This document shows, in pieces, positions 12,670 to 64,000 of a stretch of 64,000 bases of DNA. Position numbers and translations under genes: made by a program. The notes under the pieces were generated by a model. The model was not told the DNA's origin, did no database searches, and saw nothing but the letters and a program-made list of their open reading frames with translations. The first letter of the stretch is position 1, and each line of letters starts with the position of its first letter. This DNA comes from an uncultured candidatus Porisulfidus sp. (GTDB lineage: Bacteria; Pseudomonadota; Gammaproteobacteria; Poriferisulfidales; Poriferisulfidaceae): the NCBI GenBank assembly GCA_965204575.1, contig OZ241993.1, positions 1,241,674-1,305,673 of the forward strand, read 5' to 3'.

Positions 12670-12684
12670 TCGGATTGCAGGATC

Positions 12685-45265: not shown

Positions 45266-45270
45266 GGGGG

Positions 45271-46116: not shown

Positions 46117-46144
46117 GGCAATAGGGGAACTGGCGGTTCCAGGC

Positions 46145-47581: not shown

Positions 47582-47665
47582 GAGGCTAGGAGCAATGGAA
47601 AAAGCCCATTTTAAACCAAGTATTCCCGCGTCTTGCAGTGCGAGGCGGCTTGTAGGGCAGCCCAG

Positions 47666-48454
47666 TCAGCCCGAAAAAGAAAAGAATTCCTGTGCGCACG
47701 CCTGCGTATGGCGGGCGAATTCGTCCAGGCTCAGGCCCCGGGCCTCAGCGATCTGTTCGGCGATATGGGGCAGCCACATGGGCTCATTGCGGCGAGTTCG
47801 GGGGCGCGGGCGCAGCGTGCGGGGCAATAGATAGGGCGCATCCGTTTCAATCATCAGGCGGTCCAATGGAATCTCTCCGATCAGGTCTCTGAGCGACTGT
47901 CCTCGGCGCTCGTCGCAGAACCAGCCGGTGACGCCGATGTATATGCCGCGCTCAAGACAGGCGTGCAGCAAAGACCGTTCTCCAGTGAAGCAATGCAGGA
48001 CGGCGCGCGGTGGGCGGCTGGCCACGTTATCGAAAACCTGCAGGAAATCCTCGTCCGCATCGCGGTTGTGCATGAGCACGGGCAGACCCAATTCGCCTGC
48101 CAGTTCCAGTTGTTCCGAGAAAACGGCAATCTGTGTTTTGCGAGGCGACAGGTCCCGGTAGTAGTCCAGCCCGCACTCGCCGATGGCGATGACTTTGGGG
48201 TCTTGCTGGAGGCCACGCAGGATTTCGGCGCTGTCGGAGCCCCATTCACGCGCCTGATGCGGATGTACGCCGACTGCCGCCCAGCAGTCGGGGTAGCGCT
48301 GCGCGGTCGAAACGCACGCCCGGCTCTCGGCAAGGTCCGCGCCGGCCAGAAGAAACCGGGTGACGCCAGCTTCCCGGGCCCGCTGCAGGACCTCTTCCTG
48401 ATCGTTTGCGAACGACTCGTGGGTCAGGTTGCAGCAGATGTCAGTGAGCATCAA
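47666..48454 (-). CDS. tatD: TatD family metal-dependent hydrolase
   Basis: N-terminus LTDICCNLTHESF resembles E. coli TatD FDIGVNLT. ECGLDY, HCFTG, ETDAPYL. Confidence 0.85.
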   Translation of the reverse strand: MMLTDICCNLTHESFANDQEEVLQRAREAGVTRFLLAGADLAESRACVSTAQRYPDCWAAVGVHPHQAREWGSDSAEILRGLQQDPKVIAIGECGLDYYRDLSPRKTQIAVFSEQLELAGELGLPVLMHNRDADEDFLQVFDNVASRPPRAVLHCFTGERSLLHACLERGIYIGVTGWFCDERRGQSLRDLIGEIPLDRLMIETDAPYLLPRTLRPRPRTRRNEPMWLPHIAEQIAEARGLSLDEFARHTQACAQEFFSFSG

Positions 48455-49247
48455 GCCTGGGATCTCCGCATTCCGCGCAGCGGCCGAGCCTCATTTCCGA
48501 AAGGGGCTTCTGGCAGGTGCGGCATAGCTGGGGGTAGGTGGCGTGCAGCTGGGGATCCACGGCCAGACGGTCGTCAAAGACAAAGCATTCCCCTTGCCAG
48601 TGGCGGCCGCCGCATTGCTCGAAATAGTTCAGGATGCCTCCGGACAACTGCCAGACTTCCGGATGCCCCTGCTCGCGCAGCCAGGCGCTGGCCAGTTCAC
48701 AGCGGATGCCGCCCGTGCAGTAGGTCACGATGGGTCTCGTGTCTGGCTCCAAGCCGCGAGCTGCTTCCTGGAAATCACGGAACTGATGCAAGGGCAGGGT
48801 TTCGGCGGCGGCAAACTGCCCCAGGTGCGTCTCGTAGACGTTGCGCACGTCCAGCAGTCGAAGTGGGCGACCCTCGTCCAGCCATTGGCATAACTGTTGC
48901 GGCGGCAGGTGAGCGCCCGGCCGGCGGCGGGCGACTGGAGTGTCCACCTGGAGAGGCAGGAGGGAAGGGCGGGAACGGACGATCAGCTTGGAGAAAGGTG
49001 AGACGGTGATGCGGCTGCGCCGGAACTGGAGTTGCTTGAACGGGCTTTCGTCCAAGAGAAGCCGTTCGACTTGGCCGATGCCGTCTTCCGGACCCGACAG
49101 GCTCAGGTTGATTCCCTCGGGGGCCAGGGTGATGTTGCCGGCCAGCTGCAGGCGTTCGCAGGTCTTGAGCAGGTGGCGGCGCAGCGTCTCGTCTTCGTCG
49201 AAGTCCAGGAACTGGTAGGCCGTGGTATGAACCAGAAGAGGCGCCAT
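48441..49247 (-). CDS. trhO: Rhodanese-domain tRNA U34 hydroxylase TrhO (YceA/UPF0176)
   Basis: EGINLSLSG, LLDVRNVYE, active-site loop YCTGGIRCE, C-terminal Cys-rich tail. Confidence 0.8.
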   Translation of the reverse strand: MAPLLVHTTAYQFLDFDEDETLRRHLLKTCERLQLAGNITLAPEGINLSLSGPEDGIGQVERLLLDESPFKQLQFRRSRITVSPFSKLIVRSRPSLLPLQVDTPVARRRPGAHLPPQQLCQWLDEGRPLRLLDVRNVYETHLGQFAAAETLPLHQFRDFQEAARGLEPDTRPIVTYCTGGIRCELASAWLREQGHPEVWQLSGGILNYFEQCGGRHWQGECFVFDDRLAVDPQLHATYPQLCRTCQKPLSEMRLGRCAECGDPRLDAH

Positions 49248-49249
49248 GG

Positions 49250-49765
49250 TCAGAACTGTTCCAAGGTGGTGAACAGGCCGACCCGGAGATCCTTCGCCGT
49301 GTAGATGTCACGGCCATCCACCTGCACCAGGCCGTCGGCAATCCCCATCACCAGTGAACGGGTGATCAGGCGTTTGAGATGGATGTGGTAGTGCACGACG
49401 CGGTTTTCCGGGGTCACCTGGCCGGAGAACTTGACCCGGCCGACGCCCAGCGCCCGGCCTCGTCCCGGGTGACCTTGCCATCCCAGGAAGAACCCCACCA
49501 ACTGCCACAGGGCATCAAGCCCCAGGCAGCCCGGCATCACCGGATCGCCGGGGAAATGGCATTGAAAGAACCAGAGGTCGGGGCGAATGTCCAATTCCGC
49601 CCGTAGTTCTCCCTTCCCGTAGGTTCCGCCTTGTTCGCTGATATGCGTGATGCGGTCCAGCATCAGCATGTTCGGGCTCGGCAACTGGGCGTTGCCTTCG
49701 CCGAACATCTCACCGCGCGCGCAACGCAGGAGCTCCTCGTAGGAGAAACTTTGAGGTGAACCCAT
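49250..49765 (-). CDS. fabA: 3-hydroxydecanoyl-ACP dehydratase/isomerase
   Basis: [21 protein letters not shown]. 171 aa. Confidence 0.9.
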
Positions 49766-49824
49766 GGGATGGAAACCGGGTAATAAGCCTGCAGACTATT
49801 CTATAGAGTGCGGATGAGGGGAAA

Positions 49825-50781
49825 TCAGGCCGGTTCGGCGTCGGCCTGGGCATCGAGCCGCATCCGCCCCAGGGCGAGACGCAATTCACCGAACGTCTGT
49901 GTCGGGATGATTCGGGTATCGTCGATCACCGCCTCGAAAAGATTCAGGTTGGAGCCGTGCAGGAGGATCGGGTGGCCTTCCGGCACGGCACGGCGAAGTT
50001 TGCGTAACTCATTCGGAAGCAAAGGATCATCGATCGGGTAGGCAGCGATGGCGGTGCACAGGGCCCGGCTGCGTTCCGCTGCGTACGCGATCTCGTCAGC
50101 AGACAGCCCCGCTCCAAGGAAGATCGGCCGCCACCCGTAGGCTCGGGTCGCCACGGCCAAGCGAAGCAGCGGCAGTTCATCGGGTCCGGACAATCCGCCG
50201 GCCACGACCACGCGGAAGGCGGAACCGGTTCCCGGGCGGGTGGCATAGTTCAGCAAGTGGCTGCGGATTACGCCTTCGGCCATGTGCTTCTGCGCCATGC
50301 GCAAGGTTCCATTGCGGCATTCGTCTTGCATGTGCTGGATCAGCGGCGCGATCAGGTCTTCTTGCATGAACAACTCGACCAGGTTCTTCTCGGCGTCACT
50401 CAGGGTTTCGGCCAGCTGTTCCGGATTCATCCTGTCGATTGCCTCGAGGCACCGGTCGAAATATTCCATGACCGCGTCCGTGCGCGGGCGCGAGGAACCG
50501 AGGGAAGGCACCAGAACGGCCGCCTGCTCATCTCCTTCCACCATGGCCTGGAGTTCGGCAGTGGACGCTCGCGCGATGTCGCCGATACGCCGCCCGGCAT
50601 CGGTGGCACGGGCCAGCAGGCGCAGGCGCTCGATGTCCTCGTCTCGGTACAATCGGCGCTGATTTCGGGTGCGCGCCGGTTCGACTGCGTGGTAACGGCG
50701 CTCCCAGGCGCGGATCAACTCGACGCTCAGGCCCGAGCGGCGCGCGGCGACCTGGATGGGATGGAGCGGCGATTCGGCCAT
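49825..50781 (-). CDS. MerR-family regulator with C-terminal B12-binding-domain-like region
   Basis: HTH: IQVAARRSGLSVELIRAWERRY. C-terminal helical bundle plus Rossmann-like FRVVVAGGLSGPDELPLLRLAVATRAYGWRPIFLGAGL. Domain assignment is by eye. Confidence 0.6.
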   Translation of the reverse strand: MAESPLHPIQVAARRSGLSVELIRAWERRYHAVEPARTRNQRRLYRDEDIERLRLLARATDAGRRIGDIARASTAELQAMVEGDEQAAVLVPSLGSSRPRTDAVMEYFDRCLEAIDRMNPEQLAETLSDAEKNLVELFMQEDLIAPLIQHMQDECRNGTLRMAQKHMAEGVIRSHLLNYATRPGTGSAFRVVVAGGLSGPDELPLLRLAVATRAYGWRPIFLGAGLSADEIAYAAERSRALCTAIAAYPIDDPLLPNELRKLRRAVPEGHPILLHGSNLNLFEAVIDDTRIIPTQTFGELRLALGRMRLDAQADAEPA

Positions 50782-50949
50782 GTCAAGTTATCCACCTTTT
50801 GTACAGGAAAATCCGGGGCAATCCGGTGTTTCGTACAGCCATTGTACTGGATGCCCTCCTGTCGGCCAACCGGAGGTTGGGATATTTGTGATAGATTAGC
50901 CTCAAAAGAATCGTGTCCCCACGATTGTCAGAATTACTTAGGAGGAGTC

Positions 50950-52092
50950 GTGAAAAAACTGTTTATCAATCTACGCTATTTCCTCGCGCCGCTGCTGATC
51001 CTGTCGGCACTGTTCGGGGTTTTGGCAGGCGGACCGTGGGTCTGGGTCGGAGTCGCCCTGATGGGCGTCGGCATCCTGGTCGATACCACTACGCCACAAC
51101 GCACCATGGGCGCGGGATTTGACGAAGAGGGTAACACCTATGGCGTCCCCGCTCTTCAGAACGGTGTCATGTACAGCATGCTGGGCGTTTTTGTCCTGTT
51201 GCAGCTGGCCATCTGCTGGCGCATCTACCAGTACGTGAATGGCGTCCCGATGGGGACCGGCACTTTCCTGGGCCTGTCCTACCAGGAAGGAATCACCGGG
51301 ATGGAGTTGGTCGGGGCAGTCGTTTCGACCGGCATCTTCGCCGGCATCGGCATCATCTACGGGCACGAGCTGGCGCACACCAAGGGTTTCAGTTTCGTGA
51401 TCGCCCGCTGGATGATGGGACTGTCTGGTTCGTCCCATTTCTGCTACGCGCATGTGTACAACCACCATCTGGAATTGGGTTGCGAGGACGATCCCGCAAC
51501 TTCGCCGCGCGGGCGCAGCCTGTATGCTCATTTCCCGAAATCCTATTTCGGCCAGAGCAAATTCCTGTATTCGATGGAGAAGCATCGCCTGGAACGTCTG
51601 GGCGTGCCGTTCCTGTCTTGGCAGAACCGCTGGATTCGTGGCTATGCCATGAGCTTGCCGACGCTCTTCCTGTTCTGGATGGCGGGCGGCTGGCTCGGCA
51701 TCTGCGCCATGCTGCTGATCTGGATGATCTCGAACTTCGAGCTGGAAGCGCTCAACTATCTGGAGCACTATGGGCTGATTCGCGAGAAAGGCCAGCCCAT
51801 CGACTATCGCCATAGCTGGGACAACAGCACGGCGTTCACCAGCTGGTTCTTCATTGAGATCGGCCGTCAGGCGGATCACCACGACCGCGGTGAAACCCAC
51901 TTCTGGGAGCTCGACGAGGTCGGGGCGCCGAATACGGGAATGGGGTATTTCACCCTGTTCGCATTGGCGTTGGTTCCGCCGGTGTTCCACAAACTCATGG
52001 AAATAGAGTTGAAGAAGTGGGACGACAACGAAGCCTCCGAAGGCGAGTTGGAAGTCTCCCGCGCGATCAACAAGGTTGCAGGCTACGCATAA
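50950..52092 (+). CDS. AlkB/XylM-like integral-membrane di-iron hydroxylase (fatty acid desaturase superfamily)
   Basis: His boxes HELAHTK, AHVYNHH, NYLEHYGL, RQADHHD. GTG at 50950 is preceded by AGGAGG. The track ORF from 50257 is an upstream extension antisense to the MerR gene. Confidence 0.75.
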   Translation: MKKLFINLRYFLAPLLILSALFGVLAGGPWVWVGVALMGVGILVDTTTPQRTMGAGFDEEGNTYGVPALQNGVMYSMLGVFVLLQLAICWRIYQYVNGVPMGTGTFLGLSYQEGITGMELVGAVVSTGIFAGIGIIYGHELAHTKGFSFVIARWMMGLSGSSHFCYAHVYNHHLELGCEDDPATSPRGRSLYAHFPKSYFGQSKFLYSMEKHRLERLGVPFLSWQNRWIRGYAMSLPTLFLFWMAGGWLGICAMLLIWMISNFELEALNYLEHYGLIREKGQPIDYRHSWDNSTAFTSWFFIEIGRQADHHDRGETHFWELDEVGAPNTGMGYFTLFALALVPPVFHKLMEIELKKWDDNEASEGELEVSRAINKVAGYA

Positions 52093-52122
52093 GAGGTCTG
52101 AAAACCCCAACCCTATAAAGGA

Positions 52123-52154
52123 GCGCCCCCTTTCGAGGGGGCGTTTCTTTTTTT
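52123..52154 (+). terminator. Rho-independent terminator after the AlkB-like gene
   Basis: gcgccccc-tttcga-gggggcg followed by tttcttttttt. Confidence 0.8.
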
Positions 52155-52180
52155 GGGCAGGCCCTCCGTACAATAGGATC

Positions 52181-52879
52181 ATGAGTGAATTCGGGCAAAC
52201 CCGCCGGCTGGAAGACCGATTGATCGACGATGTCGCGGCCGCAGGGCAGTCGGCACAGCAGCAGCGTCGGTTGACGCTGGAGAAAGAGTTGCGCCGCCCG
52301 GACCTCAAGGATTCGGAACGTCTTGACGCACAACTGGAACTCTCTGGGATTCTGCTTGATCTCGGCGAGTCCGGGACGGCTTTCGCGATGGCCCGGGAGG
52401 TACTGGACGCGGGGATTCGGGCGGAACGCTACGAAAGGGCGGCCTCGGCCTGCCGGGTCATGTACCTGAGCGAGCAGCCGGAGTCCACGTCGGCCCTGGG
52501 ACACGGCCTTTGGCTCGCGCTGGCTTGCCCGATGGATCTGGATCTGACTTGGCAACTGTTCCGCCATTTGGTAGAGGAGACTCCGGCTCATTCCGATGGC
52601 GCGGCCGTGGCTGCGATGCTGGCTTATTTCTTGATGGACAAGCGGGCAGCCGGCGCGGAACGCGATCGTCTAATCTTCCTGGCCCAGCAGCAAGTTGCGG
52701 AAGTGGCTGAACGCCACCGCGGCATTACCAACGATGAGACAATCGGAGTCTGGGTGCAGATGCACGACCTGGACGACGTGGATGTGTTGCTGGAACGGAT
52801 GGGACGCATCCTCGACGCAATCACGCCGGACTGGTGGTTCGACCGGGAGGCGGTGCGCGCCCGGTTCGCTTCCGACTGA
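52181..52879 (+). CDS. Hypothetical protein (232 aa)
   Basis: ATG at 52181 lies just after the terminator. Helical, acidic. No family recognised. Confidence 0.5.
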   Translation: MSEFGQTRRLEDRLIDDVAAAGQSAQQQRRLTLEKELRRPDLKDSERLDAQLELSGILLDLGESGTAFAMAREVLDAGIRAERYERAASACRVMYLSEQPESTSALGHGLWLALACPMDLDLTWQLFRHLVEETPAHSDGAAVAAMLAYFLMDKRAAGAERDRLIFLAQQQVAEVAERHRGITNDETIGVWVQMHDLDDVDVLLERMGRILDAITPDWWFDREAVRARFASD

Positions 52880-52898
52880 TTCCAACCGGTACGGGGTC

Positions 52899-53990
52899 AT
52901 GGCATCCGCTGACGATCCTTATGCACGCCGTATCATCCATATCGACATGGATGCGTTCTATGCGGCGGTCGAGATGCGCGAGGACCCTTCGCTACGAGGT
53001 CGCCCCCTGGTCGTCGGCGGTGATCCGGAACGGCGGGGCACGGTGGCGACATGCAATTACGAGGCCCGAGCCTATGGCATTCACTCGGCAATGGCGAGCC
53101 GGACCGCCAAGAAACGATGCCCGGAAGTCATCTTCATCCGCCCGCGGTTCGACCTGTACCGTGCAGTGTCGGCCGAAATACGTGAAATCTTCCTCCATTA
53201 CACTCCCAAGGTCGAGCCCTTGTCCCTGGACGAAGCCTACCTTGACGTGACCGGTTGCCGCCTGTTCGGTGGAATTGCTACTGACATTGCACGCGATATC
53301 AAGCGTCGCATCCTGGAGAAAACCCGGTTGACCGGTTCGGCCGGCGTCTCCTACAACAAGTTCCTGGCCAAAATCGCTTCGGACATGAACAAGCCGGACG
53401 GTTTGACCGTGGTGCGCCCGGAGGGTGGCCCAAAGCTGGTGGCCCGCCTGCCGATCCGAAAGTTCTTCGGGATCGGGCCGGTCACGGCAGCGCGAATGAA
53501 GGAATTGGGAATCGAAACCGGAACCGATCTCAGGCAGTGGCCGCTGGAACGACTCCAGCCTTTGTTCGGGAAGCATGCCGAGTACTACTACCAGGCGGCG
53601 AGGGGGTTGGATTTTCGCGAAGTGGAACCGGGTCGTCCTCGAAAGTCGGTAGGCTCGGAGACGACGTTCGTGCAGGATATTCAGGATTTGGAGGAAATGC
53701 TGAAGGCGCTCAAGTTGCGGGCGCGCGAGGTGGCGCTGGATCTGCAGGAAAAGCGGTTAACCGGGAAGACAGTTACGGTGAAAGTCAAGTTCAGCAATTT
53801 TACGCAGGTCACCCGGAGCCATTCGTTCGATCGGCCATTGACTTCGTATCGACAGATGGCAGATGTCCTGCCGGATTTGTTGCGCCGGGCCGCACAACCG
53901 GGTCACGCAGTGCGCCTGCTCGGGGTGACGGTTTCGAACTTGGTTCCGCATTCCGATGAAGAAGGGCCGGTGCAGCGTAGCCTTTTGTAG
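52899..53990 (+). CDS. dinB: DNA polymerase IV
   Basis: IIHIDMDAFYAAVEMREDP, SLDEAYLDVT, GIGPVTAARM. Confidence 0.9.
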   Translation: MASADDPYARRIIHIDMDAFYAAVEMREDPSLRGRPLVVGGDPERRGTVATCNYEARAYGIHSAMASRTAKKRCPEVIFIRPRFDLYRAVSAEIREIFLHYTPKVEPLSLDEAYLDVTGCRLFGGIATDIARDIKRRILEKTRLTGSAGVSYNKFLAKIASDMNKPDGLTVVRPEGGPKLVARLPIRKFFGIGPVTAARMKELGIETGTDLRQWPLERLQPLFGKHAEYYYQAARGLDFREVEPGRPRKSVGSETTFVQDIQDLEEMLKALKLRAREVALDLQEKRLTGKTVTVKVKFSNFTQVTRSHSFDRPLTSYRQMADVLPDLLRRAAQPGHAVRLLGVTVSNLVPHSDEEGPVQRSLL

Positions 53991-54063
53991 GGGCGTATAT
54001 GGAAGTTGAGAGTTGAGGGTTTTCACGGCTCTGTTGTGGAAATCCGTGCTAGAGTAAATCACC

Positions 54064-56487
54064 ATGCACCGAGCCTTCCGCTTGAGTCAAGTCAGGCCAG
54101 GCTTGGCAGGGTCATGCGCGATCGCAGAATTTAAAAGCAAGCGGACAAGAAAGGACGCGAGCAACAGAATGCCACCACGCGAAACCCCACGGCCTGGAAT
54201 ACTGAAAAAAGTCACAGCGGCTGATCTTGGTTTTGTCGAACTCCCGGCACTAACGCCGCATCTTGAATTCCGCCTCATTGAAGAAGGGCAGGTGCTGTTG
54301 GTTTCCGAAACCTTCAATACATTGCTCCGCGAAAAGGTTCACACGGACCTCTTGCCGCTCCTCGACGGACACCATTCGCATCATGACATTGCCGAGACCC
54401 TGGCCGGAGCGTATTCGGAATCCGAAATTCAAACCGCCATTGCTTCTTTGGTCGCGAGAGGGTATGTCGTTTCCGGCAACCACCTCATGGAACGAGGGCA
54501 AGCAGCATTCTGGTCCTCGCTGGGTGTCTCTCCCCGATGGGCCGAGGGGCGTTTGGCGGCGGCGAAAGTGGAAGTTGCCGGCGATGATGACCAGCTCGCT
54601 CGCAGGCTAGATGCTCTGGGCATAGCCGTGGGCACCGACCATCCGGCTCTTTCGGTCATTGTTTGCGAGGATTATCTCGACGATCAGCATGCCGGGATCA
54701 ATCAACGCCACCTTGCGTCCGGCGAGCCGTGGATGTTGGCGCAACCGAAAGGCATTCGGCCTTTATTCGGCCCGGTATTCCGGCCCTCGGAGCAAGGCCC
54801 ATGCTGGGCCTGCCTGACCTATCGCATGCGCGGCCATCAAGAGGTCCATAATTTCCTGCGCAACCTTGCTGGAGAGGATGCGGCTTTTTCGCCTTTTGCC
54901 GCTGAATCCTCCGTCCTGGATTCGGTGTATGGACTGATTGCTGTCGAGATCGCCAAGTGGGTGGTGCTTGAGGAAATGGCTCCCCTCCATGAACAGGCGA
55001 TTTCGTTCGACACTGCTCGCCTGAGCAGCGAATACCATCCGGTCATGCGCCGGCCTCAGTGTTTCGCATGCGGGGAGGAGGCGCTCTATCGCGCGGACCG
55101 GCCGCCCGTTCCGGTGCAGCTGCGATCAAGCCCGAAAAACATATGTAACAGTGGAGGGGCGCGTTCGGTTTCTCCAGAAGAGACTCTTGCCCGATATCGC
55201 CATCTGGTCAGTCCGGTCAGTGGGGTCGTTTCATGGGTCACGCGAATCACGGATGAAACAGACCCTTGGTTGCATGTACATTGGGCGGGGAGCAATTTCG
55301 CGCTGCAAAGCATGAAATTGAGTTCATTGCGGCGCAGTTTGCGGAGCAAGAGCGCGGGCAAGGGCAGCACGCCGAAGCAATCCGAGGCAAGCGCTCTCTG
55401 TGAGGCGGTCGAACGCTACTGCGGTGCCTTTCACGGAGATGAGATTTGCTGTCAAAGGCGGTTCTCGGAGTTTTCTCAGGCTGGGGAATCAGAAGCGGTC
55501 CACCCGAACGATGTCCAGTTGTTCAGCGATTGGCAACTGGATCATGCTGAGGAAATTGATGCCGAGGGTCACCCCTGCAATGTTGTTCCATCGCGTTTCG
55601 ACCCCGGTGCGAAGCTTGGTTGGTCGCCGGTATGGTCGCTGACCGAGGGCCGGCACCGATACCTGCCGACATCAATGCTCTACAGCATGCCCAGTGAACA
55701 TCAAGAGCGTTCGGGGCTTAAAGCGGATTCGAACGGGTGCGCCGCCGGGAACACCCTGGAAGAAGCCATCTTGCAGGGATTTTTCGAACTGGTTGAACGC
55801 GATGCTTTTGCCATTTGGTGGTACAACCGGCTGCATTTGCCTGGAGTAAACCTGGAGAGTTTCAATGATGACTACTTGGCGTGCGCGTGTGACCGCTATC
55901 GAGACTTTCATCGCGAGTTGTGGGTGCTGGACGTGACCAACGATCTTGGCATTCCCGTCTTCGTCGCCGTCTCCCGCAGAATCGACAAGGATGAGGAAGA
56001 TATCATCTATGCGGCCGGGGCGCATACAGACCCGCACATTGCTGCTCTACGCGCGGTGTGTGAGTTGAATCAATTTCTGAACTTGATCCAGGGAAGGAGA
56101 CAGGCCTCCGCAAGTGTGGCAGTCAATGACCCGACATGCCGCTGGTGGTGGAAGAATGCAAGGCTGGCGGACCATTCCTACCTCGCGCCAGCTTCCGCCG
56201 TCAAGCCAAAGGGGAAGGCGGATTATTCCGTTCCCGACACCACGGACATAAAAGAGGATGTGGAGCAATGCCGTGCGGTGGTCGAATCCAAAGGCATGGA
56301 GTTCTTGGTGCTCGATCAGACACGACCCGATATCGGGATGTCCGTGGTGCGGGTCATTGTGCCTGGCCTGCGCCACTTTTGGCCACGTTATGCCCCAGGG
56401 CGCTTGTTCGAAGTGCCGGTTGGGATGAAATGGCGTGAGAACCCGATTACGGAAGCGGAAGTCAACCCCGCCCCGGTCATTGTCTGA
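54064..56487 (+). CDS. Fused E1-like/YcaO azoline-forming cyclodehydratase (PatD/TruD/LynD-like heterocyclase)
   Basis: N-terminus resembles PatD (LTPHLEFRLIEEGQVLLVSE..., wHTH LLPLLDGHHSHHDIAETL...LVARGYVV). Two CxxC pairs (GPCWACL, PQCFACG). YcaO half carries SALCEAVERYCG, NGCAAGNTLEEAILQGFFELVERDAF and a Pro-rich C-terminus NPAPVIV. An alternative ATG at 54169 gives 772 aa. Confidence 0.8.
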   Translation: MHRAFRLSQVRPGLAGSCAIAEFKSKRTRKDASNRMPPRETPRPGILKKVTAADLGFVELPALTPHLEFRLIEEGQVLLVSETFNTLLREKVHTDLLPLLDGHHSHHDIAETLAGAYSESEIQTAIASLVARGYVVSGNHLMERGQAAFWSSLGVSPRWAEGRLAAAKVEVAGDDDQLARRLDALGIAVGTDHPALSVIVCEDYLDDQHAGINQRHLASGEPWMLAQPKGIRPLFGPVFRPSEQGPCWACLTYRMRGHQEVHNFLRNLAGEDAAFSPFAAESSVLDSVYGLIAVEIAKWVVLEEMAPLHEQAISFDTARLSSEYHPVMRRPQCFACGEEALYRADRPPVPVQLRSSPKNICNSGGARSVSPEETLARYRHLVSPVSGVVSWVTRITDETDPWLHVHWAGSNFALQSMKLSSLRRSLRSKSAGKGSTPKQSEASALCEAVERYCGAFHGDEICCQRRFSEFSQAGESEAVHPNDVQLFSDWQLDHAEEIDAEGHPCNVVPSRFDPGAKLGWSPVWSLTEGRHRYLPTSMLYSMPSEHQERSGLKADSNGCAAGNTLEEAILQGFFELVERDAFAIWWYNRLHLPGVNLESFNDDYLACACDRYRDFHRELWVLDVTNDLGIPVFVAVSRRIDKDEEDIIYAAGAHTDPHIAALRAVCELNQFLNLIQGRRQASASVAVNDPTCRWWWKNARLADHSYLAPASAVKPKGKADYSVPDTTDIKEDVEQCRAVVESKGMEFLVLDQTRPDIGMSVVRVIVPGLRHFWPRYAPGRLFEVPVGMKWRENPITEAEVNPAPVIV

Positions 56488-56853
56488 TCTGTCGATATTG
56501 ACGTCATAAAAACAATACCGGGCTACCGAAGGGGACCTTCATCAAGAGCAGGCTCCACGGGATGATTTCCTGAGCGGCTTCAGAAGCCGTTCGCTACCCC
56601 AGTTGATTGGTGATCCGGGTCGGGAAGGAATCCTGAGGCGCGTTAGCGGGCTTCCCATCACCATGGCGGCACGGTTTAGCTGGGCGGAATCCCCGGCACC
56701 AGCAATGTCCTGCTGGGGTCAAACCACTCACAAAGACAGAGGCTCGGGCGCCAGTGGCCGACTTCCAGAACGGGAAGCGCATCTGGATATTGATTTATTT
56801 TTCGGGGTGATTTTTTTATGCGAAAGCCTGAAGTGCCACCACATTAACCATAG

Positions 56854-56883
56854 ATGGCGCAGAGAGATTACTTTCTGCGCCAT
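56854..56883. other. 10-bp perfect hairpin downstream of the precursor gene
   Basis: atggcgcaga-gagattactt-tctgcgccat, 63 nt past the precursor stop on the minus strand. No U-tract. Confidence 0.3.
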
Positions 56884-56945
56884 TAAGTATGTGTTCCACC
56901 GAAGAGCTTGAAACTAACTGAACACCCCTAAGCAGTCGAGTTTAA

Positions 56946-57221
56946 TTACGTGCAGAAAAGAACCCCTGCAGCAATCATCTCCAACTGTTCCTCGCTCAGT
57001 TCGGGACCGGCTGGCAATGACAGATGAAATGTGTTTGCATCGTTTTGATGCACCACGATTGTCAAACTTTCTGGCAATTCCACACCGAACTCGTCAGCAA
57101 TCACAGTTTTCGGGTCGGAGATGAGTTGCTGGCGAAAGCCAGCATCCTCTATTGCGCGATCTGTTAAATGCTGACGCATTTGATCAGCCCTTTCGGCTAT
57201 TGCTTCGTACAACTCTTCCAT
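56946..57221 (-). CDS. NHLP (nitrile hydratase leader peptide)-type RiPP precursor, predicted core VLFCT
   Basis: 91 aa: MEELYEAIAERADQMRQHLTDRAIEDAGFRQQLISDPKTVIADEFGVELPESLTIVVHQNDANTFHLSLPAGPELSEEQLEMIAAG-VLFCT. GAGGG SD about 8 nt upstream of the ATG at 57221. The track ORF starts further upstream at 57320. Confidence 0.7.
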   Translation of the reverse strand: MEELYEAIAERADQMRQHLTDRAIEDAGFRQQLISDPKTVIADEFGVELPESLTIVVHQNDANTFHLSLPAGPELSEEQLEMIAAGVLFCT

Positions 57222-57245
57222 ATTGATTCCCTCGCTAGTTGTAAT

Positions 57246-57259
57246 CCACATGCATGTGG
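57246..57259. promoter_or_regulatory. Perfect 14-bp palindrome in the precursor / TraB-like divergent control region
   Basis: CCACATGCATGTGG. Lies between a candidate extended -10 (minus-strand TGCTATACT, 57269..57277) and the precursor SD. Confidence 0.3.
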
Positions 57260-57398
57260 GTTGATTCAAGTATAGCAAGACTTGTAGGGAACTCGTTCGA
57301 ATGTGCGGGTTCATGTGCACGTGCTAGACCCGTCCCGATATGCGTCTCTATGTTAGACTTGCGGCAATCATTTTCCAGAGGTTTTTCCTTTCCTCAAG

Positions 57399-58325
57399 AT
57401 GCCTGATCGCCTGACCCTAGCTGCGCTCATCGCGTTGTTGCTCGTCCTGTTGGCGGGCTCCATTTCCGTCTCCCAAAGACCGGCACCGTTTTCGGAAGGT
57501 GTCTTTTGGCAGGTGAGCAAGGACGGCGAGATCGTCGGGCACATTCTCGGCACCATCCACAGCAATGACGAACGCGTCACGCGGATTCCGGAACGGGTCA
57601 TGGACGTGTTTACGAAATCATCAGCCTATGCCATTGAGGCGTTTCCCGGGAGTGAACTGTGGAACCCCTACCATGGGCTTCAGAATATTCGTGGCCGCAT
57701 GATGCTGCCGGGCAAGCAGACACTTGCGGAGGTCGCCGGTGAGGAACTGGCGAAGAAGGTGTATACGATTCTCAAGAGCAATTACGTCGATGAGGAATTT
57801 GCACGCCGCGTAAAACCGTGGGCCGCGATCCACAGTCTCGCCATTAAGTCAGAGCACCAAGGACCGATCGTGGATCAGAAGCTCCTGGACCTGGCGGTGC
57901 TGCAGGACAAGGAGTTGTATCAAATCGAGAGTCCGGAAGAGTTGCTGGCTGCGTTCTATGCAATGCCGATGGATTCGCAGGTCTCGTTGCTGAAAGACAA
58001 GTTGCGGGCCTTTCCAGAGATGCGCAATACCATGGAAGACATCGTTCTGGCCTACGGGCGCGAAGACCTGCAGGCCATGATGGACCTGTCGACGGACTTT
58101 ATTGACAAGGACCCGGACAAACGGAAACATTATGAGATGTATGTCAAGCATGCCATCGATATTCGAAGCATTGTGATGACGCACTACATGGGCGCAGCGT
58201 TTCGCGAGGGCAATGCGTTCATTGCCGTCGGGGCCTTGCATTTGTATGGAAAGAACGGAGTGCTGGCGTTGCTTGGCCAAGAATTCTACGGCCAATACGA
58301 AGTGGAACGAATCCTGATCAAGTAA
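57399..58325 (+). CDS. Secreted TraB/GumN (TIKI-fold) family protein
   Basis: Signal/anchor MPDRLTLAALIALLLVLLAGSIS. Family motifs GHILGTIHSND and AVGALHLYG. 308 aa. Confidence 0.7.
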   Translation: MPDRLTLAALIALLLVLLAGSISVSQRPAPFSEGVFWQVSKDGEIVGHILGTIHSNDERVTRIPERVMDVFTKSSAYAIEAFPGSELWNPYHGLQNIRGRMMLPGKQTLAEVAGEELAKKVYTILKSNYVDEEFARRVKPWAAIHSLAIKSEHQGPIVDQKLLDLAVLQDKELYQIESPEELLAAFYAMPMDSQVSLLKDKLRAFPEMRNTMEDIVLAYGREDLQAMMDLSTDFIDKDPDKRKHYEMYVKHAIDIRSIVMTHYMGAAFREGNAFIAVGALHLYGKNGVLALLGQEFYGQYEVERILIK

Positions 58326-58392
58326 CCCGCCTGGCCCCGCTGCCGCGGAACAAGCCGGTCTCCATTACACGTTCGGTGACGGGGTGCTTCCC

Positions 58393-59085
58393 TCAACTGC
58401 GTCCGTAAACCGGCACGACGGCGCCGTTGATGGATTTGCTGGATGGATTGGCGAGATGGATGATGGCTGCGGCGAGGTCCTCGGGTGGCACCCACTTTGA
58501 ATGATCCGCATTGGGCATGTCGGAGCGATTTCGAGGAGTGTCAATGGTGCCGGGCAGGATGCAGTTGGCCGTGATTCCGGTTTCGGCGCATTCCAGGGCA
58601 ATCACTTCCGTCAGGGTGACCACGGCCGCTTTCGAGACACAGTAGGGAGCCATTCGCGCCCCCGGCTTGCGCACGGCGCGGGCCCCCACGTTGATGATGC
58701 GACCGAAATCCGCCTCCCGCATGATCGGCAGGGCGTACTTGCAGGCCAGCCAGGCGGTGACGGCATTAATCCGAAACATGTCGGCCCAATCGTCCAGGGT
58801 GGTTTCTTCGACTTTCGGTCCCATCGCGAAGCCGCCCGCAATGTTGGCGAGGATATCGATGCGGCCATGTTGCTGGTGGATTGCACTGAAAGTTTCACGC
58901 ACGGAGGACTCGTCGGTCAGGTCGCAGGCATGAGCTGCGGAACTTGGCACGTCTTCCAATCGCTTGGCATCGCGGTCCACGGCAACGGTGGTGGCGCCAC
59001 ATTCTCCGAAACGACGGACTGTAGCTTGGCCCAACACCCCAGCGGCTCCGGTGACGACAGCGATGTGGTCGGTAAAGAGGTTCAT
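58393..59085 (-). CDS. Short-chain dehydrogenase/reductase (SDR)
   Basis: VVTGAAGVLG (TGxxxGxG), NIAG, YCVSKAA (YxxxK). ATG at 59085. Confidence 0.85.
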   Translation of the reverse strand: MNLFTDHIAVVTGAAGVLGQATVRRFGECGATTVAVDRDAKRLEDVPSSAAHACDLTDESSVRETFSAIHQQHGRIDILANIAGGFAMGPKVEETTLDDWADMFRINAVTAWLACKYALPIMREADFGRIINVGARAVRKPGARMAPYCVSKAAVVTLTEVIALECAETGITANCILPGTIDTPRNRSDMPNADHSKWVPPEDLAAAIIHLANPSSKSINGAVVPVYGRS

Positions 59086-59110
59086 GGACAGACCGTACGT
59101 AGCGGCAGGT

Positions 59111-60799
59111 TCATTGTAGGGCCCAGCCGGGGATTTCGCCCAACAGGCCGAAGACCCAATGGCCAAGGCTAAAGACCAGTGTAGTCAGTATGACGACCGA
59201 CAGGATGTCGAGCCAGACTCCGGCGATGACCATCTTGATGATCGGAACTCGTCGCGAACCGTAGACGATGGCATTGGGCGGGGTGGAAATCGGCAGCATG
59301 AATGCGCAAGAGGCAGCCAAGGCCGTTGGGATCAGCAACAACAGGGGATGCACCTCGATGCCTTGCGCGAGGCTGGCCATGATCGGGATGGCCGTGGAGG
59401 TGGTGGCCGTGTTGGAGGTCAGTTCGGTCAGGCTGGTGATGAAGCCAATCGTGCTCATCACAACCACAAGAGAACTACTGTCGTGCAGCAGGATCTCAAA
59501 CTGTTGGGCCGCCCAAGCAGACAGGCCGGATACGCCGAACCCCTTGGCCAAGGCCAAGCCCCCTCCGAACAGGATCAGCACGCCCCAGGGGACCTTGTTC
59601 AGGTCATCTGTGTCCAGCAATCGGCCATGGGTCGATTTGGCGGGAAGCGCGAACAGGAGAAGAGCCATGGCGATGGCGACCGTGCTGTCGTCGACCATCG
59701 GGCCAACGGCGGCAATGTCGAACCGGGCCAGAAACAGATCCAGGTAATGGCTCCAGCCGAAGATATCGACATCGCTGCCGAACAGGTATTTCTTGCGGGT
59801 GAACCAGAGAGCGATCAGGGTGGCAAAGACCGCTAAAACTCTTTTCTCCTCGGGGCTCATCGGTCCGAGCTCCCGGTGCTGCCGGGCAATCAGGTCGCCG
59901 CCGCTGAACTGGCCGGTGGGGGGCAGGGGGAAGACCAAGCGGGTCAGCAGGAACCATGCGCACCCCAGAAACAAGAGTGAGAAAGGCATGGCCATCATTG
60001 ACCAGGAAGCGAACGAAATGGAAGGCGCCTGGGGGTATAGCTGTTCGAACTGGGCGACCAGAATGGCGTTGGGCGGCGTGCCCGTCAGGGTGGCCATGCC
60101 GCCGATGGAGGCGGCATACGCAAGCCCCAGCAGCAGGGCAAAGGAAAAGTTCCTTTCGCGGGGATGCGGAGAGGTGTCGGCGGCTCCCTGGGTGGCATGG
60201 AACTCCTCGCGGAACAGAACGACAGACAACGCGATCGGAAGCAACATCATGGTGGTGGCAGTATTGGAAAGCCACATCGAGAGAAGGGCGGCTGCCAGCA
60301 TGAATCCAAGCACGAGTGCGTCGAGCCGGTCGCCCATGATGCGCAGGATGTTCAGCGCAATTCGCTTGTGCAGATTCCATTTCTGCACGGAGATCGCAAC
60401 CAGGAACCCGCCCAGCAGAAGAAAAGTGACCCAGCTCATGTACTGGGTGACCACGTTATGGAGACTGATACTCAGGTCGCCGGGGACCAGGCCGCCGCCC
60501 AGCGCGGCATCTCCGAAATCAACCTTCCCCGAGACATCGGTGTAGCGGCCCCGCATGATGCCCATGGCCGGGAACAGCACCAGCGGCATCAGGGCGGTCG
60601 CGGCGATCGGGATGGCTTCGCTGACCCACCAGATGGCCATCCAGGCGGTGATGGCCACCATGCGGGTGACCATCGGATTTCCGGGATCGAGGTCCGTGAA
60701 GGCGAGAATCAGGACGAATGCCAGCGGTCCGAGCCATAGCCCGATCCGGTTGCGCAGGGTGACCGGCCCGTCGTCATGCCATGTGGGGCGAGCGAACAT
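59111..60799 (-). CDS. SLC13/DASS family anion:Na+ symporter-like permease
   Basis: 562 aa polytopic membrane protein. SNTATT-type motifs occur twice (WLSNTATTMMLLPI and ELTSNTATTSTAIPI), typical of the DASS inverted repeat. Confidence 0.75.
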   Translation of the reverse strand: MFARPTWHDDGPVTLRNRIGLWLGPLAFVLILAFTDLDPGNPMVTRMVAITAWMAIWWVSEAIPIAATALMPLVLFPAMGIMRGRYTDVSGKVDFGDAALGGGLVPGDLSISLHNVVTQYMSWVTFLLLGGFLVAISVQKWNLHKRIALNILRIMGDRLDALVLGFMLAAALLSMWLSNTATTMMLLPIALSVVLFREEFHATQGAADTSPHPRERNFSFALLLGLAYAASIGGMATLTGTPPNAILVAQFEQLYPQAPSISFASWSMMAMPFSLLFLGCAWFLLTRLVFPLPPTGQFSGGDLIARQHRELGPMSPEEKRVLAVFATLIALWFTRKKYLFGSDVDIFGWSHYLDLFLARFDIAAVGPMVDDSTVAIAMALLLFALPAKSTHGRLLDTDDLNKVPWGVLILFGGGLALAKGFGVSGLSAWAAQQFEILLHDSSSLVVVMSTIGFITSLTELTSNTATTSTAIPIMASLAQGIEVHPLLLLIPTALAASCAFMLPISTPPNAIVYGSRRVPIIKMVIAGVWLDILSVVILTTLVFSLGHWVFGLLGEIPGWALQ

Positions 60800-60814
60800 A
60801 GGGTAGGTTCCGAC

Positions 60815-60843
60815 AAAAAGCGCACGCGGGAATGGCGTGCGCT
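60815..60843 (-). terminator. Rho-independent terminator after nrdB
   Basis: Minus strand: agcgcacgc-cattccc-gcgtgcgct followed by ttttt. Confidence 0.75.
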
Positions 60844-60864
60844 AGGATGAGACTCAACTGTTGG

Positions 60865-62058
60865 TCAGTCCCAACTGAGTGCCCCCCCGGTCTGGTATTC
60901 GGTCACCCGGGTTTCGAAAAAGTTCTTTTCCTTCTTCAGATCCAGGGTTTCCGACATCCACTGAAACGGGTTCTGCGCGCCGGGGAATTGCGCGGGCAGG
61001 CCGACTTGGGCGAGCCTGCGATTGGCAATGAACTTGACGTAGTCCTCGAATACAGGAGCGTTCATCCCCAGGATGCCGCGCGGCATGGTGTCGTAGGCGT
61101 AGGCGATTTCCAATTCCACGCCTTCCATGATCAGGTCGATCATCTGTTGCTGGAATTCTCCGGACCACAACTGCGGATTTTCGATCTTGATCTGGTTGAT
61201 GACGTCGATCCCGAAATTCATATGCATGGACTCGTCACGCAGGATGTATTGGAACTGTTCGGCAACGCCGGTCAACTTGTTTCGGCGGCCCATCGACAGG
61301 ATCTGCGAGAACCCCACGTAGAAGAAAATTCCCTCGAAGACCACGTAGAACGCGATCAGGTCGCGCAACAGGCGCTGGTCGTTCTCAAAAGTCCCGGTCT
61401 GGAAGTTCGGGTCGCCCAGGCTCTGGGTGAAGGGAAGCGCCCACTCCGCCTTGCGTGCCACGGACGGCAGTTCGCGGTACATGTTGAAGACTTCGCCTTG
61501 GTCCAGGCCCAGCGATTCGACGCAGTATTGGTAGGCATGGGTGTGAATGGCCTCTTCGAATGCCTGGCGAAGCAGGTATTGCCGGCATTCCGGGTTGGTG
61601 ATGTGGCGGTATACGGCCAGCACCAGGTTGTTGGCGACCAGCGAATCGGCGGTGGAGAAGAATCCGAGGTTGCGCATGACGATCATGCGTTCGTCCTCGG
61701 TCAGGCCGTCCGGGTTCTTCCACAACTCGATGTCCGCGGTCATGTTGATTTCCTGCGGCATCCAGTGATTGTTGCAGGCGGCCAGGTATTTCTCCCAGGC
61801 CCAGGTGTACTTGAAGGGAACCAGTTGATTCAGGTCGGCACGGCAGTTGATGATCTGTTTGTCATCGACCTGGATACGGGCCGCGCCCATCTCCAGGGTT
61901 TCCAGGCCAGTGGCCCCGGCGCCGGTTTCGGCAGGGGGTGTTTCCGTGACGGCCGGAGCCTCGGGCAGGCGGGGTTCCAGGGCGAGGTCGGCGGCTGGCG
62001 GTGGGGAGCTCGACGGGGAGAGCGGATCGTCCCAGGCGGTAGGAGTCATGGATGTCAT
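60865..62058 (-). CDS. nrdB: Ribonucleoside-diphosphate reductase beta subunit (class Ia)
   Basis: Iron ligand motifs [10 protein letters not shown] and [15 protein letters not shown] at 62058 is preceded by AAGGAGG. Pro/Ala-rich N-terminal extension. Confidence 0.9.
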
Positions 62059-62084
62059 AGTGATCCTCCTTGTCGGTTCGGGGA

Positions 62085-64000
62085 CTACTGGCAAGCCTCG
62101 CAGTCTTCGTCCATGGAGCAGAACGGAGTCGCGTTTTCGCCGGTGTCCGGGGCGGTCGCATTCGCGGCGACCGCGTTGAGTTGACTGCGCTCGTCGCCGG
62201 TGCTTTTCTCGACGTGCGTGGCACCGAGCGAGCGCAGGTAGTAAGTGGTCTTCAGGCCGCGTACCCAAGCCAACTTGTACAGGTTGTCAAGGTCGCGCCC
62301 GGAAGGCGTGGCCATGTAGAGGTTCAGCGATTGCGCTTGGTCAATCCATTTCTGTCGGCGCGAAGCGGCCTCCACCAGCCAGCGCGGATCCAGCTCGAAT
62401 GCCGTGATGTACAGCTGCTTGATCTCGTCCGGGATGCGGGCGATGTCCTGGATGCCGCCGTTGTAATGCTTGAGATCGTTGATCATCACGTCGTCCCACA
62501 GGTCTTCCTTCTTGAGGTCGCGCACCAGGTACAGGTTGATGACCGTGAATTCGCCGGACAGGTTGGACTTCACGAACAGGTTCTGGTAAGTGGGTTCGAT
62601 GCTTTGCGTCACGCCGGTGATATTGGAGATGGTGGCGGTCGGCGCGATGGCCATCGTGTTGGAGTTGCGGATGCCGAGGCGCACTTTTTCGCGCAGGGCG
62701 TCCCAGTCCATCGTAGTATCGGCATTGACCTGGTAGAACCGTTCGCCGCCGCGCGTCCGGCGGACCCGCTCAATTGAATCGATGGGCAGGATTCCTTCGG
62801 ACCATAGCGAGCCTTGGAAGCTCGGATAAGCGCCGCGTTCCTGAGCCAAGTCGGCAGACGCGTCAATGGCGAAGTAGCTGACCGCTTCCATGGATCGATC
62901 AGCAAAATCGATCGCCTCATCGCTGGCGTAGGGGATACGCAACTGGTACAGCGCGTCCTGGAACCCCATCAGGCCCAAGCCGACCGGGCGGTGGAGCAGG
63001 TTGGAACGGCGCGCCTTGGCGACGCTGTAGTAGTTGTAGTCGATCACGTTGTCCAGCATGCGCATGGCGGTCCGCACGGTGCGCTCGAGTTTTTCCATCA
63101 TCAGGCCGTTTTCGTCGACGTGGGCCGCGAGATTGATGGAACCGAGGTTGCACACGGCGATCTCGTCGTCGGAGGTGTTGAGCGTGATTTCGGTGCACAG
63201 GTTGGACGAATGGATGACGCCATGGTGCTGCTGCGGGGAGCGTAGGTTGCAGACGTCCTTGAAGGTGATCCAGGGATGGCCGGTCTCGTAGAGCATGCCC
63301 AGCATCTTGCGCCACAGGTCCCCGGCGCGGACTGTCTTGAAGTTCGAGATCTGTCCGTTTGCCGCCATCGCTTCGTATTGGGCGTAGCGGGTTTCGAACT
63401 CTTCGCCGATCAAGTCATGCAGGTCGGCTGTGTCACTTGGGCTGAAGAGGGTCCAGTCTCCATCGTCGGCGACGCGTTTCATGAACAGGTCCGGAACCCA
63501 GTTGGCCGTGTTCATGTCGTGCGTGCGCCGCCGGTCGTCGCCGGTGTTCTTGCGCAGTTCTAGGAATTCCTCGATGTCCAGGTGCCAGGTTTCGAGATAC
63601 GCGCACATGGCGCCCTTGCGCTTGCCGCCCTGGTTGACGGCGACGGCCGTGTCATTGGCCACCTTGAGGAACGGCACCACGCCTTGGGAGCGGCCGTTGG
63701 TGCCCTTGATGTGCGAGCCCATGGCGCGGATCCGGGTCCAGTCGTTGCCAAGGCCGCCAGCGAATTTGGACAGCATGGCGTCGTCCTTGATGGAACTGAA
63801 GATGCCGTCCAGATCGTCTGGCACGGTGGTCAGGTAGCACGAGGACAGTTGCGGGCGCAGGGTGCCGGAGTTGAACAAGGTCGGAGTCGAACTCATGAAG
63901 TCGAAGGTCGACAGCAGGTTGTAGAACTCGATGGTCCGGGCCTCCCGGTCCACTTCGGGGCCGGCAAGGCCCATGGCCACGCGCATAAAAAAGGCCTGAG
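62085..64000 (-). CDS. nrdA: Ribonucleoside-diphosphate reductase alpha subunit (C-terminal part; N-terminus beyond the window end)
   Basis: Active-site [10 protein letters not shown] and C-terminal redox pair DEDCEACQ. Frame is open to position 64000. Confidence 0.9.

Follow-up and report, generated by a model that had tools for sequence, protein, structure and literature searches.

A reduced srp-type proteusin locus between dinB and traB/gumN in a Candidatus Porisulfidus sponge symbiont

We analysed a 64-kb stretch of DNA from an uncultured Candidatus (Ca.) Porisulfidus sp. [quoted passage not shown] The interval 53991-57398, which holds both genes, is probably a reduced copy of an srp cluster that lies between dinB and traB/gumN in a sulfur-oxidising sponge symbiont of the Ca. 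Porisulfidus type. An earlier note, made from the sequence alone, had grouped the two genes with traB/gumN as an undescribed RiPP class. All three open reading frames (ORFs) exist at the coordinates and in the orientations that it gave, and the locus is a reduced, Trp-less, halogenase-less, single-Cys variant of srp, not a new RiPP class. The claim of novelty arose because srp was not recognised and because a neighbouring core-genome gene was counted in.

The precursor and the YcaO enzyme belong to the srp family

The srp clusters were reportedly first described by Nguyen et al. (JACS 2021, doi 10.1021/jacs.1c03474), as later papers of the same laboratory cite it. They are sponge-derived RiPP proteusin clusters with a precursor (SrpE), a YcaO enzyme (SrpC) and a Trp-6-brominase (SrpI); SrpE is composed of an NHLP leader and the pentapeptide core LCCCW, SrpC turns the three Cys into thiazolines and SrpI brominates the terminal Trp (PMC10286304, PMC10858898, bioRxiv 10.1101/2023.06.09.544420). 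The clusters occur widely and are strongly transcribed (bioRxiv 10.1101/2023.06.09.544420), and are not mentioned in a review of sponge peptides (PMC12426817).

The precursor gene of the window lies on the minus strand at 56946-57221, with its stop codon at 56946-56948 and a Shine-Dalgarno sequence, GAGGGA (57228-57233, minus strand), that can be read 7 nt upstream of its ATG. It encodes a SrpE-like NHLP (proteusin) precursor of 91 aa, which scores 65.3 bits against the NHLP leader profile TIGR03793 (cutoff 50.9), bearing out the earlier description of a 91-aa NHLP precursor with the five-residue core VLFCT. When compared with SrpE, whose sequence was taken from the supplement of PMC10286304, it is 53% identical over 79 aa (E 1e-32), with the leader/core boundary and the first core positions in register. 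The family alignment places the leader at aa 1-86 (56964-57221), ending in EEQLEMIAAG, and the core VLFCT follows the AAG at 56949-56963. The motif L-T-E-E-Q-L, which is reported to bind the YcaO enzyme and SrpI in the srp leader, appears as L-S-E-E-Q-L in the window precursor, an L(X)4L motif at 56982-56999.

Clustered at 90% identity, SrpE-like proteins fall into more than 660 groups, almost all of which end in LCCCW. The 19 close homologues of the window precursor are about 91 aa each, with cores of 4-6 residues after EEQLEMIAAG, which read LSCC[LVI], LCCCV or RCCC and, in the subclade of the window (the FC clade), VLFCT, AIFCT, VLFCCT, IYFCI or VFFCM. A Phe-Cys pair is present in seven of the seven FC-clade cores. 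The window core matches srp in its length and position (five residues after AAG), but has one Cys where its relatives have LSCCL, LCCCx or RCCC; it contains no Trp and ends in Thr.

The YcaO gene (54169-56487, plus strand) encodes a SrpC-like fused cyclodehydratase of 772 aa, with an E1-like/RiPP recognition element (RRE) half and a YcaO half. In the numbering of a longer, 807-aa reading, a winged helix-turn-helix/RRE (PF21084, aa 64-135) is found at 54253-54468, the E1-like leader-binding domain (TIGR03882, aa 222-389) at 54727-55230 and the YcaO domain (PF02624) at 55354-56373. The profile searches that bear on a fused E1-YcaO heterocyclase resembling PatD and LynD, as the earlier note had read it, were all positive: PF02624 at E 6.5e-97 (325 bits), TIGR03604 at 266.5 bits (cutoff 219) and TIGR03882, the E1-like leader-binding profile of thiazole/oxazole-modified microcins, at 134.8 bits (cutoff 36.9). 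The protein aligns end to end with LynD (4v1t, E 4e-162) and TruD, and the zinc site CxxC...CxxC (CWAC...CFAC), CEAVERY, ELVERD and LEEAILQGFFELVERD are identical or conservatively changed relative to LynD. The assignment of the residues that bind ATP and Mg follows published YcaO and LynD structures.

Two lengths, 807 and 772 aa, had been offered for this protein. The start at 54169 (MPPRETP, Met36 of the 807-aa reading) is kept in the closest relatives and is preferred because their frame is broken upstream of it, so that the 772-aa protein stands. The 807-aa reading, from an alternative ATG at 54064 (54064-56487, plus strand), exists in the window only, where a 1-nt indel relative to L006 and L060 opens the upstream frame. 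Full-cluster orthologues have Thr at the position of Met36, and their translation begins about 30 codons further upstream.

Over its full length, the window enzyme shares 53-67% identity with YcaOs encoded next to SrpI and LCCCW precursor genes (L037, L042, L047, L049, L052). Its identity to YcaOs of halogenase-less full clusters is 72-84% (60-84% in the tblastn tabulation of loci), with a range of 53-83% for full srp-type clusters in general, and it shares the clade-typical C-terminus NPxPVI[AGV] with the SrpI-linked enzymes. In a neighbour-joining tree of 23 YcaOs, the window enzyme groups with its three closest relatives, and the sister of this group is the Porisulfidus clade with full clusters and LSCC[LV] cores; both clades fall within a radiation that includes the SrpI-linked enzymes. 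Together with the in-register identity of the precursor to SrpE, this nesting overturns the idea of an undescribed class.

The cluster has been reduced to two genes and a remnant

A scan of GTDB genomes gave 25 loci, which, like the contigs that carry the precursor homologues, come from sponge metagenomes and from sponge-symbiont metagenome-assembled genomes (MAGs) of Ca. Porisulfidus, Chromatiales, Arenicellales and Paracoccaceae/Boseongicola, and a metagenome scan with SrpI gave 23 loci, which have the same gene set together with SrpI and precursors that end in LCCCW. According to a tblastn tabulation of these 25 genome loci and 23 SrpI loci, the genes that recur around the precursor encode the YcaO enzyme, a 369-386-aa protein whose gene nearly always adjoins that of the YcaO enzyme, an HlyD-like adaptor, a C39-peptidase ABC protein, a second ABC protein (973 aa), an MMPL protein, a fatty-acid-desaturase fusion of about 810 aa with a GlnE-like C-terminal half, and S-adenosylmethionine (SAM) methyltransferases. 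Some srp-type loci add an MPAB/Lcp-like protein, a 379-aa protein of no assigned family and an amine oxidase. The exporter of these parental clusters corresponds to that of the NHLM bacteriocin systems (TIGR03796 above its cutoff, at 872.7 bits; TIGR03797; TIGR03794), and the 369-aa, 379-aa and 386-aa proteins had no sequence match in Pfam, NCBIfam or the PDB. The lipid-flavoured accessory set suggests that the mature srp product exceeds a thiazoline pentapeptide. SrpI was not found in L001-L023, and halogenase-less srp-type clusters, with cores LSCC[LVI], LCCC[TLI] or RCCC, are found at L001, L004, L009-L011 and L013-L023. The conserved srp-type genes occur with or without SrpI in these loci and in L037-L056 (for example at L001:9528-10637, L002:8626-11058 and L002:6619-7758).

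In the window, a pseudogene remnant directly after the YcaO stop codon (56510-56671, plus strand) comprises 54 codons that correspond to codons 5-58 of the 369-aa gene (59% identity by tblastn, with E 1e-11 when the whole window was searched and 7e-15 for just the intergenic region). The remnant has no start codon, its homology stops after codon 58, and the same stretch is also present in L006 and L007. The C39-ABC protein, the second ABC protein, HlyD, MMPL, the 810-aa desaturase fusion and the methyltransferases were not found by tblastn in the 64-kb window, SrpI had no tblastn match there at E <= 1e-3, and low-stringency tblastn of the three intergenic regions found no remnant besides the stump of the 369-aa gene. 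Scanned against Pfam, about 55 ORFs of the window, a few small ones of which had no match, yielded housekeeping genes, AprBA, an IS110 transposase and a PIN protein, and no nitroreductase/SagB-McbC, subtilisin, C39 peptidase, TfuA or halogenase. Hence the earlier statement that the window has no McbC-type dehydrogenase, PatA/PatG subtilisin, C39 exporter or TfuA agrees with both the tblastn and the Pfam searches.

The same reduced layout (dinB, 772-aa YcaO gene, stump, precursor gene) is found in L006, L007 and L060, and the deletion therefore predates the divergence of these three and the window. The locus had been called compact, and it does have few genes, but it became so by reduction, as the stump at 56510-56671 attests. 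Further along the same path, the YcaO gene is gone from L012, where an orphan precursor with the core LCCCL lies beside dinB.

The insertion site and the TraB/GumN neighbour

The left flank of the insertion site, outside the system, is dinB (DNA polymerase IV; 52899-53990, plus strand; NF002677, 464 bits), and the right flank is a gene for a TraB/PrgY/GumN-family protein (57399-58325, plus strand; PF01963, E 8.8e-41), divergent from the precursor gene, beyond which an SDR gene, identified by its Pfam/NCBIfam profile matches, forms a further flank. The inserted lower-GC cassette between them (53991-57398) contains the YcaO gene, the pseudogene remnant and the precursor gene, and is defined by an empty-site comparison, by sequence identity and by GC content at third codon positions (GC3). 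L063 is collinear with the window over 44456-53859 and 57478-63998 and shows the empty site, in which dinB is followed after 36 bp by traB and then by the SDR gene and RNR, with neither YcaO nor precursor gene; the bounds of the insertion rest on this empty dinB-traB site. Synteny at dinB is kept in L005, L006, L012, L059 and L063. The lower-GC islet between dinB and the SDR gene that had been noticed earlier is confirmed: GC is 0.47-0.60 across 54000-58250 and 0.60-0.65 outside, and GC3 is 0.63 for the YcaO gene and 0.52 for the precursor gene, compared to 0.70-0.89 for neighbouring genes. At the insertion edges, a search for boundary repeats gave only short, chance-level matches, and a promoter/terminator scan of the cassette gave fewer sites than shuffled controls.

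Between the window and L006, sliding identity is 94-98% over window 53600-57200 and 77-92% in the flanks. The synonymous divergence (dS) is 0.07-0.09 for the YcaO and precursor genes, compared to 0.40-1.07 for TraB, DinB and SDR, whose ratios of nonsynonymous to synonymous divergence (omega) are 0.04-0.08. Over this interval the dS of the cassette is five- to ten-fold below that of the flanking dinB, traB and SDR genes. Given this contrast in dS and sliding identity, the history of the cassette differs from that of TraB and is younger, and the atypical GC3 fits an exchange; judging from these sequence comparisons, the cassette has probably been swapped recently by recombination between symbiont lineages.

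The position of traB/gumN beside the precursor gene had led to its inclusion in the system, and a self-contained three-gene RiPP system could be imagined, in which TraB/GumN, a secreted protein of the TIKI fold, takes off the NHLP leader or provides immunity in the periplasm. We regard this as very improbable. The gene, whose presence and signal-like N-terminus had been recognised correctly, adjoins the precursor gene divergently and its product has a hydrophobic, signal-like N-terminus, as read from the sequence; Porisulfidus genomes with a full cluster have it immediately downstream of the ABC genes and on their strand, and the window encodes no other protease. The survey of gene neighbourhoods nevertheless showed that it does not co-occur with the YcaO and precursor genes across genomes. 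At the empty site of L063, TraB (69% identical to that of the window) is present without RiPP genes, and free-living marine gammaproteobacteria (L061, L062) keep its synteny, with a TraB that is 55% identical, between a block of a small desaturase (FAdes), MerR and FabA and RNR, again without RiPP genes. Conversely, within fetched flanks of at most 10 kb, TraB was not found in 11 srp-like loci outside the Porisulfidus lineage (Arenicellales, Paracoccaceae, other Gammaproteobacteria) or in the 23 SrpI loci. In L012, TraB persists beside the SDR gene although the YcaO gene is gone, and in L006 an autotransporter gene parts it from the precursor gene. Its dS of 0.40 and omega of 0.08 are like those of the flanking genes and unlike those of the cassette, the window encodes no route by which a leader-bearing 91-aa peptide would reach the periplasm, and a literature search found no link of TraB/GumN to RiPP leaders or processing. 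TraB/GumN is a conserved core-genome gene and a bystander of the RiPP system; its adjacency in one genome was misleading, and the comparison with the empty site resolved the question.

In L006, the closest relative, the gene between traB and the precursor gene (L006:7096-9699) encodes an 867-aa autotransporter, and in L012 two ORFs, 1279 and 1142 aa long, occupy the gap between traB and the precursor gene. The dinB-traB interval has the appearance of an insertion hot spot. A gene for a Na+/sulfate (CitMHS-type) symporter (window 59111-60799, minus strand), between the SDR gene and RNR, is missing in the otherwise collinear L063 and represents a second indel of the neighbourhood. Elsewhere in the window, an IS110-family transposase gene (PF01548/PF02371; 250-1386, plus strand) and a gene for a PIN-domain protein (7102-7521, plus strand) lie amid housekeeping genes.

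As to the host, window 12202-14652 (plus strand) encodes AprB (PF12139) and, after it, a FAD protein of 655 aa, which is presumably AprA. Such an adenylylsulfate (APS) reductase pair is consistent with a sulfur oxidiser of the SUP05/Porisulfidus type and is in keeping with the chemolithotroph-type context proposed earlier, and the close relatives of the locus all come from sponge metagenomes or sponge-symbiont MAGs.

Selection on the retained genes

We examined whether the retained pair still evolves under constraint. Among three genomes that share the deletion, the ratio of nonsynonymous to synonymous changes (pN/pS) of the YcaO gene is 0.28-0.39, which differs significantly from neutrality (P <= 1e-4). 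Precursors of the FC-core clade, orphan copies included, have a pN/pS of 0.20-0.29 (P <= 1e-3), from which L010 was left out as a misaligned pair that is two codons shorter. Four independent assemblies with the deletion have both ORFs intact, and in the window the precursor gene has a good Shine-Dalgarno sequence. Since purifying selection acts on the two-gene remnant, the retained pair probably still makes one thiazoline at Cys90 of the precursor.

Several observations weigh against a functional srp-type pair, and they are those on which the opposite interpretation would build, namely that the YcaO gene and the precursor gene are a non-functional leftover of a deleted srp cluster, heading for loss and yielding no useful product. 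The export, cleavage and accessory genes have all been lost, leaving a pseudogene stump, and with no exporter, protease or oxidase in the 64-kb window, a complete pathway is not demonstrable there. The omega of the YcaO gene is about 0.3 in the reduced clade, compared to 0.11 between the window and full-cluster orthologues and to the 0.04-0.08 of the flanking genes, which suggests relaxed constraint. Of 219 positions that are invariant in the clade, five are changed in the window YcaO and none in its nearest full-cluster relatives, and Tyr470 has been altered independently in two genomes. Among the three closest genomes, the pN/pS of the precursor is indistinguishable from neutrality, the substitutions being too few. 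The contiguous-Cys motif has been lost from the window core, which is left with a single Cys, and in L006 the AAG cleavage motif has become ASR (ASR-AIFCT), so that core and cleavage motif (VLFCT, ASR-AIFCT, IYFCI, VLFCCT, VFFCM) have drifted compared to the conserved LSCC[LVI]. In L005 and L059 the YcaO gene is gone, and an FC-type precursor gene remains next to dinB, beside a second, RCCC-type cluster; this decay to an orphan precursor, also seen in L012, has its parallel in the orphan srpE genes that are common among srp loci (bioRxiv 10.1101/2023.06.09.544420). In addition, the label SrpC-like for the window YcaO derives from YcaOs adjacent to SrpI/LCCCW genes, not from SrpC itself.

Against a mere leftover stand the intact ORFs in the four assemblies that share the deletion, the pN/pS of the YcaO gene significantly below 1 after the deletion, and the purifying selection on FC-type precursors, which extends to the orphans. 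The Phe-Cys pair has been kept throughout the FC clade, the catalytic motifs are intact, and the cassette is more alike between genomes than its flanks are, and is thus still exchanged and not merely decaying. We therefore consider a leftover without function rather unlikely, and lean towards continued function under relaxed constraint.

Another possibility is that the FC-type precursor serves mainly as an extra substrate of a complete srp cluster elsewhere in the genome and that the local YcaO is redundant. In several symbiont genomes, a single contig does carry at least two srp-like loci or precursors (L017/L018, L015/L023, L019/L022, L020/L021, L013), and in L005 and L059 purifying selection persists on an FC-type precursor that has no YcaO gene of its own and lies beside an RCCC-type cluster. 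Purifying selection, however, also acts on the local YcaO gene, a strict substrate selectivity has been reported for SrpC (PMC10286304), and a 64-kb window cannot reveal a second locus in the genome. We judge this explanation improbable, and prefer a local pair that still acts on its own precursor.

Proposed chemistry and fate of the product

By analogy with SrpC/SrpE, MprC/MprE and LynD/PatE, the LSEEQL motif of the leader, of the L(X)4L type, would dock on the RRE of the YcaO enzyme, whose YcaO domain, using ATP, would phosphorylate the amide between Phe89 and Cys90. The thiol of Cys90 would then close into one thiazoline, with a loss of 18 Da (-18 Da), and Thr91 might also yield a methyloxazoline, although this is uncertain. 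The ring would be expected to remain an azoline and not become an azole, because no azoline oxidase is present.

Nothing in the window can carry out cleavage or export, which would thus need factors that are encoded elsewhere. Cleavage at the AAG and export could be supplied by the NHLM exporter of a further srp locus elsewhere in the genome, and genomes with more than one locus are common; alternatively, the product could stay attached to the leader in the cell. A further reading, to which we give only a small probability, takes the two-gene module for a distinct minimal subclass of srp with a hydrophobic x-x-Phe-Cys-x core, which is kept by selection and exchanged between lineages. Its product would be a single-thiazoline pentapeptide or an uncleaved, thiazoline-capped 91-aa protein; a protease from outside the cluster would release the pentapeptide, and the periplasmic TraB/GumN protein next door could conceivably have been co-opted for this.

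Other NHLP proteins among the loci

Eight of the SrpI loci (L037 at ~5131, L042 at ~11330, L047 at ~3316, L048, L049, L050, L055 and L056) encode a second, longer NHLP-domain protein, the N-terminal part of which matches the NHLP precursor profile (34-39% identity) and which ends in ...GHGSEAVTSAFCIEALERL... and not in a short Cys core. In L033-L035, a lone canonical LCCCW srpE gene is flanked by split AhpC/TSA genes on one side and a sulfatase gene on the other; neither a YcaO nor a halogenase gene lies within 10 kb, and orphan srp precursors thus also occur outside the lineage of the window. The flavobacteriial loci L025-L032 (Chryseobacterium, Flavobacterium; Flavobacteriia), which also came up in the genome scan, encode 5-8 NHLP-like precursors in tandem, whose cleavage sites are GG and whose cores span 20-30 aa; these multi-precursor arrays are a different system, unrelated to the short-core srp family.

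Significance

Our results reveal neither a new RiPP class nor a new role for TIKI-fold proteins. They do provide a natural series at one site, from a full cluster to a YcaO gene with its precursor gene and on to an orphan precursor, with selection on the retained genes, which shows the parts that are naturally dispensable. With only one Cys open to modification, the YcaO/NHLP pair of the window is very simple and useful for enzymology, and the series is a useful pointer for the srp peptides, whose natural product and role in the sponge holobiont remain cryptic.

Comparison with known systems

The domain architecture of the window YcaO is that of LynD, TruD and PatD, with which it shares full-length alignment, the Zn-Cys4 site, CEAVERY and ELVERD. 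These enzymes, however, work with a PatE-type leader, PatA/PatG, macrocyclisation and recognition-sequence cassettes and have a PxPxP-type C-terminus, whereas the window has an NHLP leader and none of these features, and its YcaO ends in NPAPVIV. An assignment to the cyanobactins was rejected, there being no subtilisin among the roughly 55 scanned ORFs and the precursor being of the NHLP type and not a multi-cassette PatE. Likewise, an assignment to linear azole-containing peptides of the McbBCD/SagBCD type was rejected, as the scanned ORFs included no nitroreductase/SagB-like match.

As in the NHLP/NHLM bacteriocin systems (Haft, Basu and Mitchell 2010), the window precursor scores above the TIGR03793 cutoff and the parental clusters carry the three-gene exporter, which the window lacks. 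The Mpr proteusins of Methylovulum psychrotolerans comprise the YcaO enzyme MprC, the oxidase MprD and the precursors MprE1-10 (PMC12455567). As in the window, an NHLP leader is read there by a fused RRE-YcaO enzyme through L(X)4L and azolines are formed on Cys, but, unlike in the window, an FMN oxidase makes azoles, and there are ten precursors, which have longer cores with 2-6 heterocycles (PMC12455567); the leader is only 36% identical to the window precursor.

The bromo-Trp srp clusters differ from the window in their core LCCCW (compared to VLFCT, with one Cys and no Trp), in the presence of the SrpI halogenase, for which the window has no counterpart, and in their product, with three thiazolines and a bromo-Trp where at most one thiazoline, possibly with one oxazoline, would be expected here. 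They also have the HlyD/C39-ABC/ABC exporter, MMPL, the 810-aa desaturase fusion, methyltransferases and the 369-aa protein, of which the window retains only the stump of the 369-aa gene. Common to both are the NHLP leader of about 80-86 aa with L(S/T)EEQL, the A(A/S)G boundary, the C-terminal core of about five residues, the same clade of fused E1-like/RRE-YcaO enzymes, sponge-symbiont hosts, a patchy distribution and frequent orphan precursors. The closest relatives of the window pair are the halogenase-less srp-type clusters, in which the accessory and export genes are complete and two or three Cys are contiguous, neither of which holds for the window; their YcaOs are 60-84% and their precursors 51-78% identical to those of the window, and in Porisulfidus they occupy the same chromosomal neighbourhood, on the TraB-SDR side.

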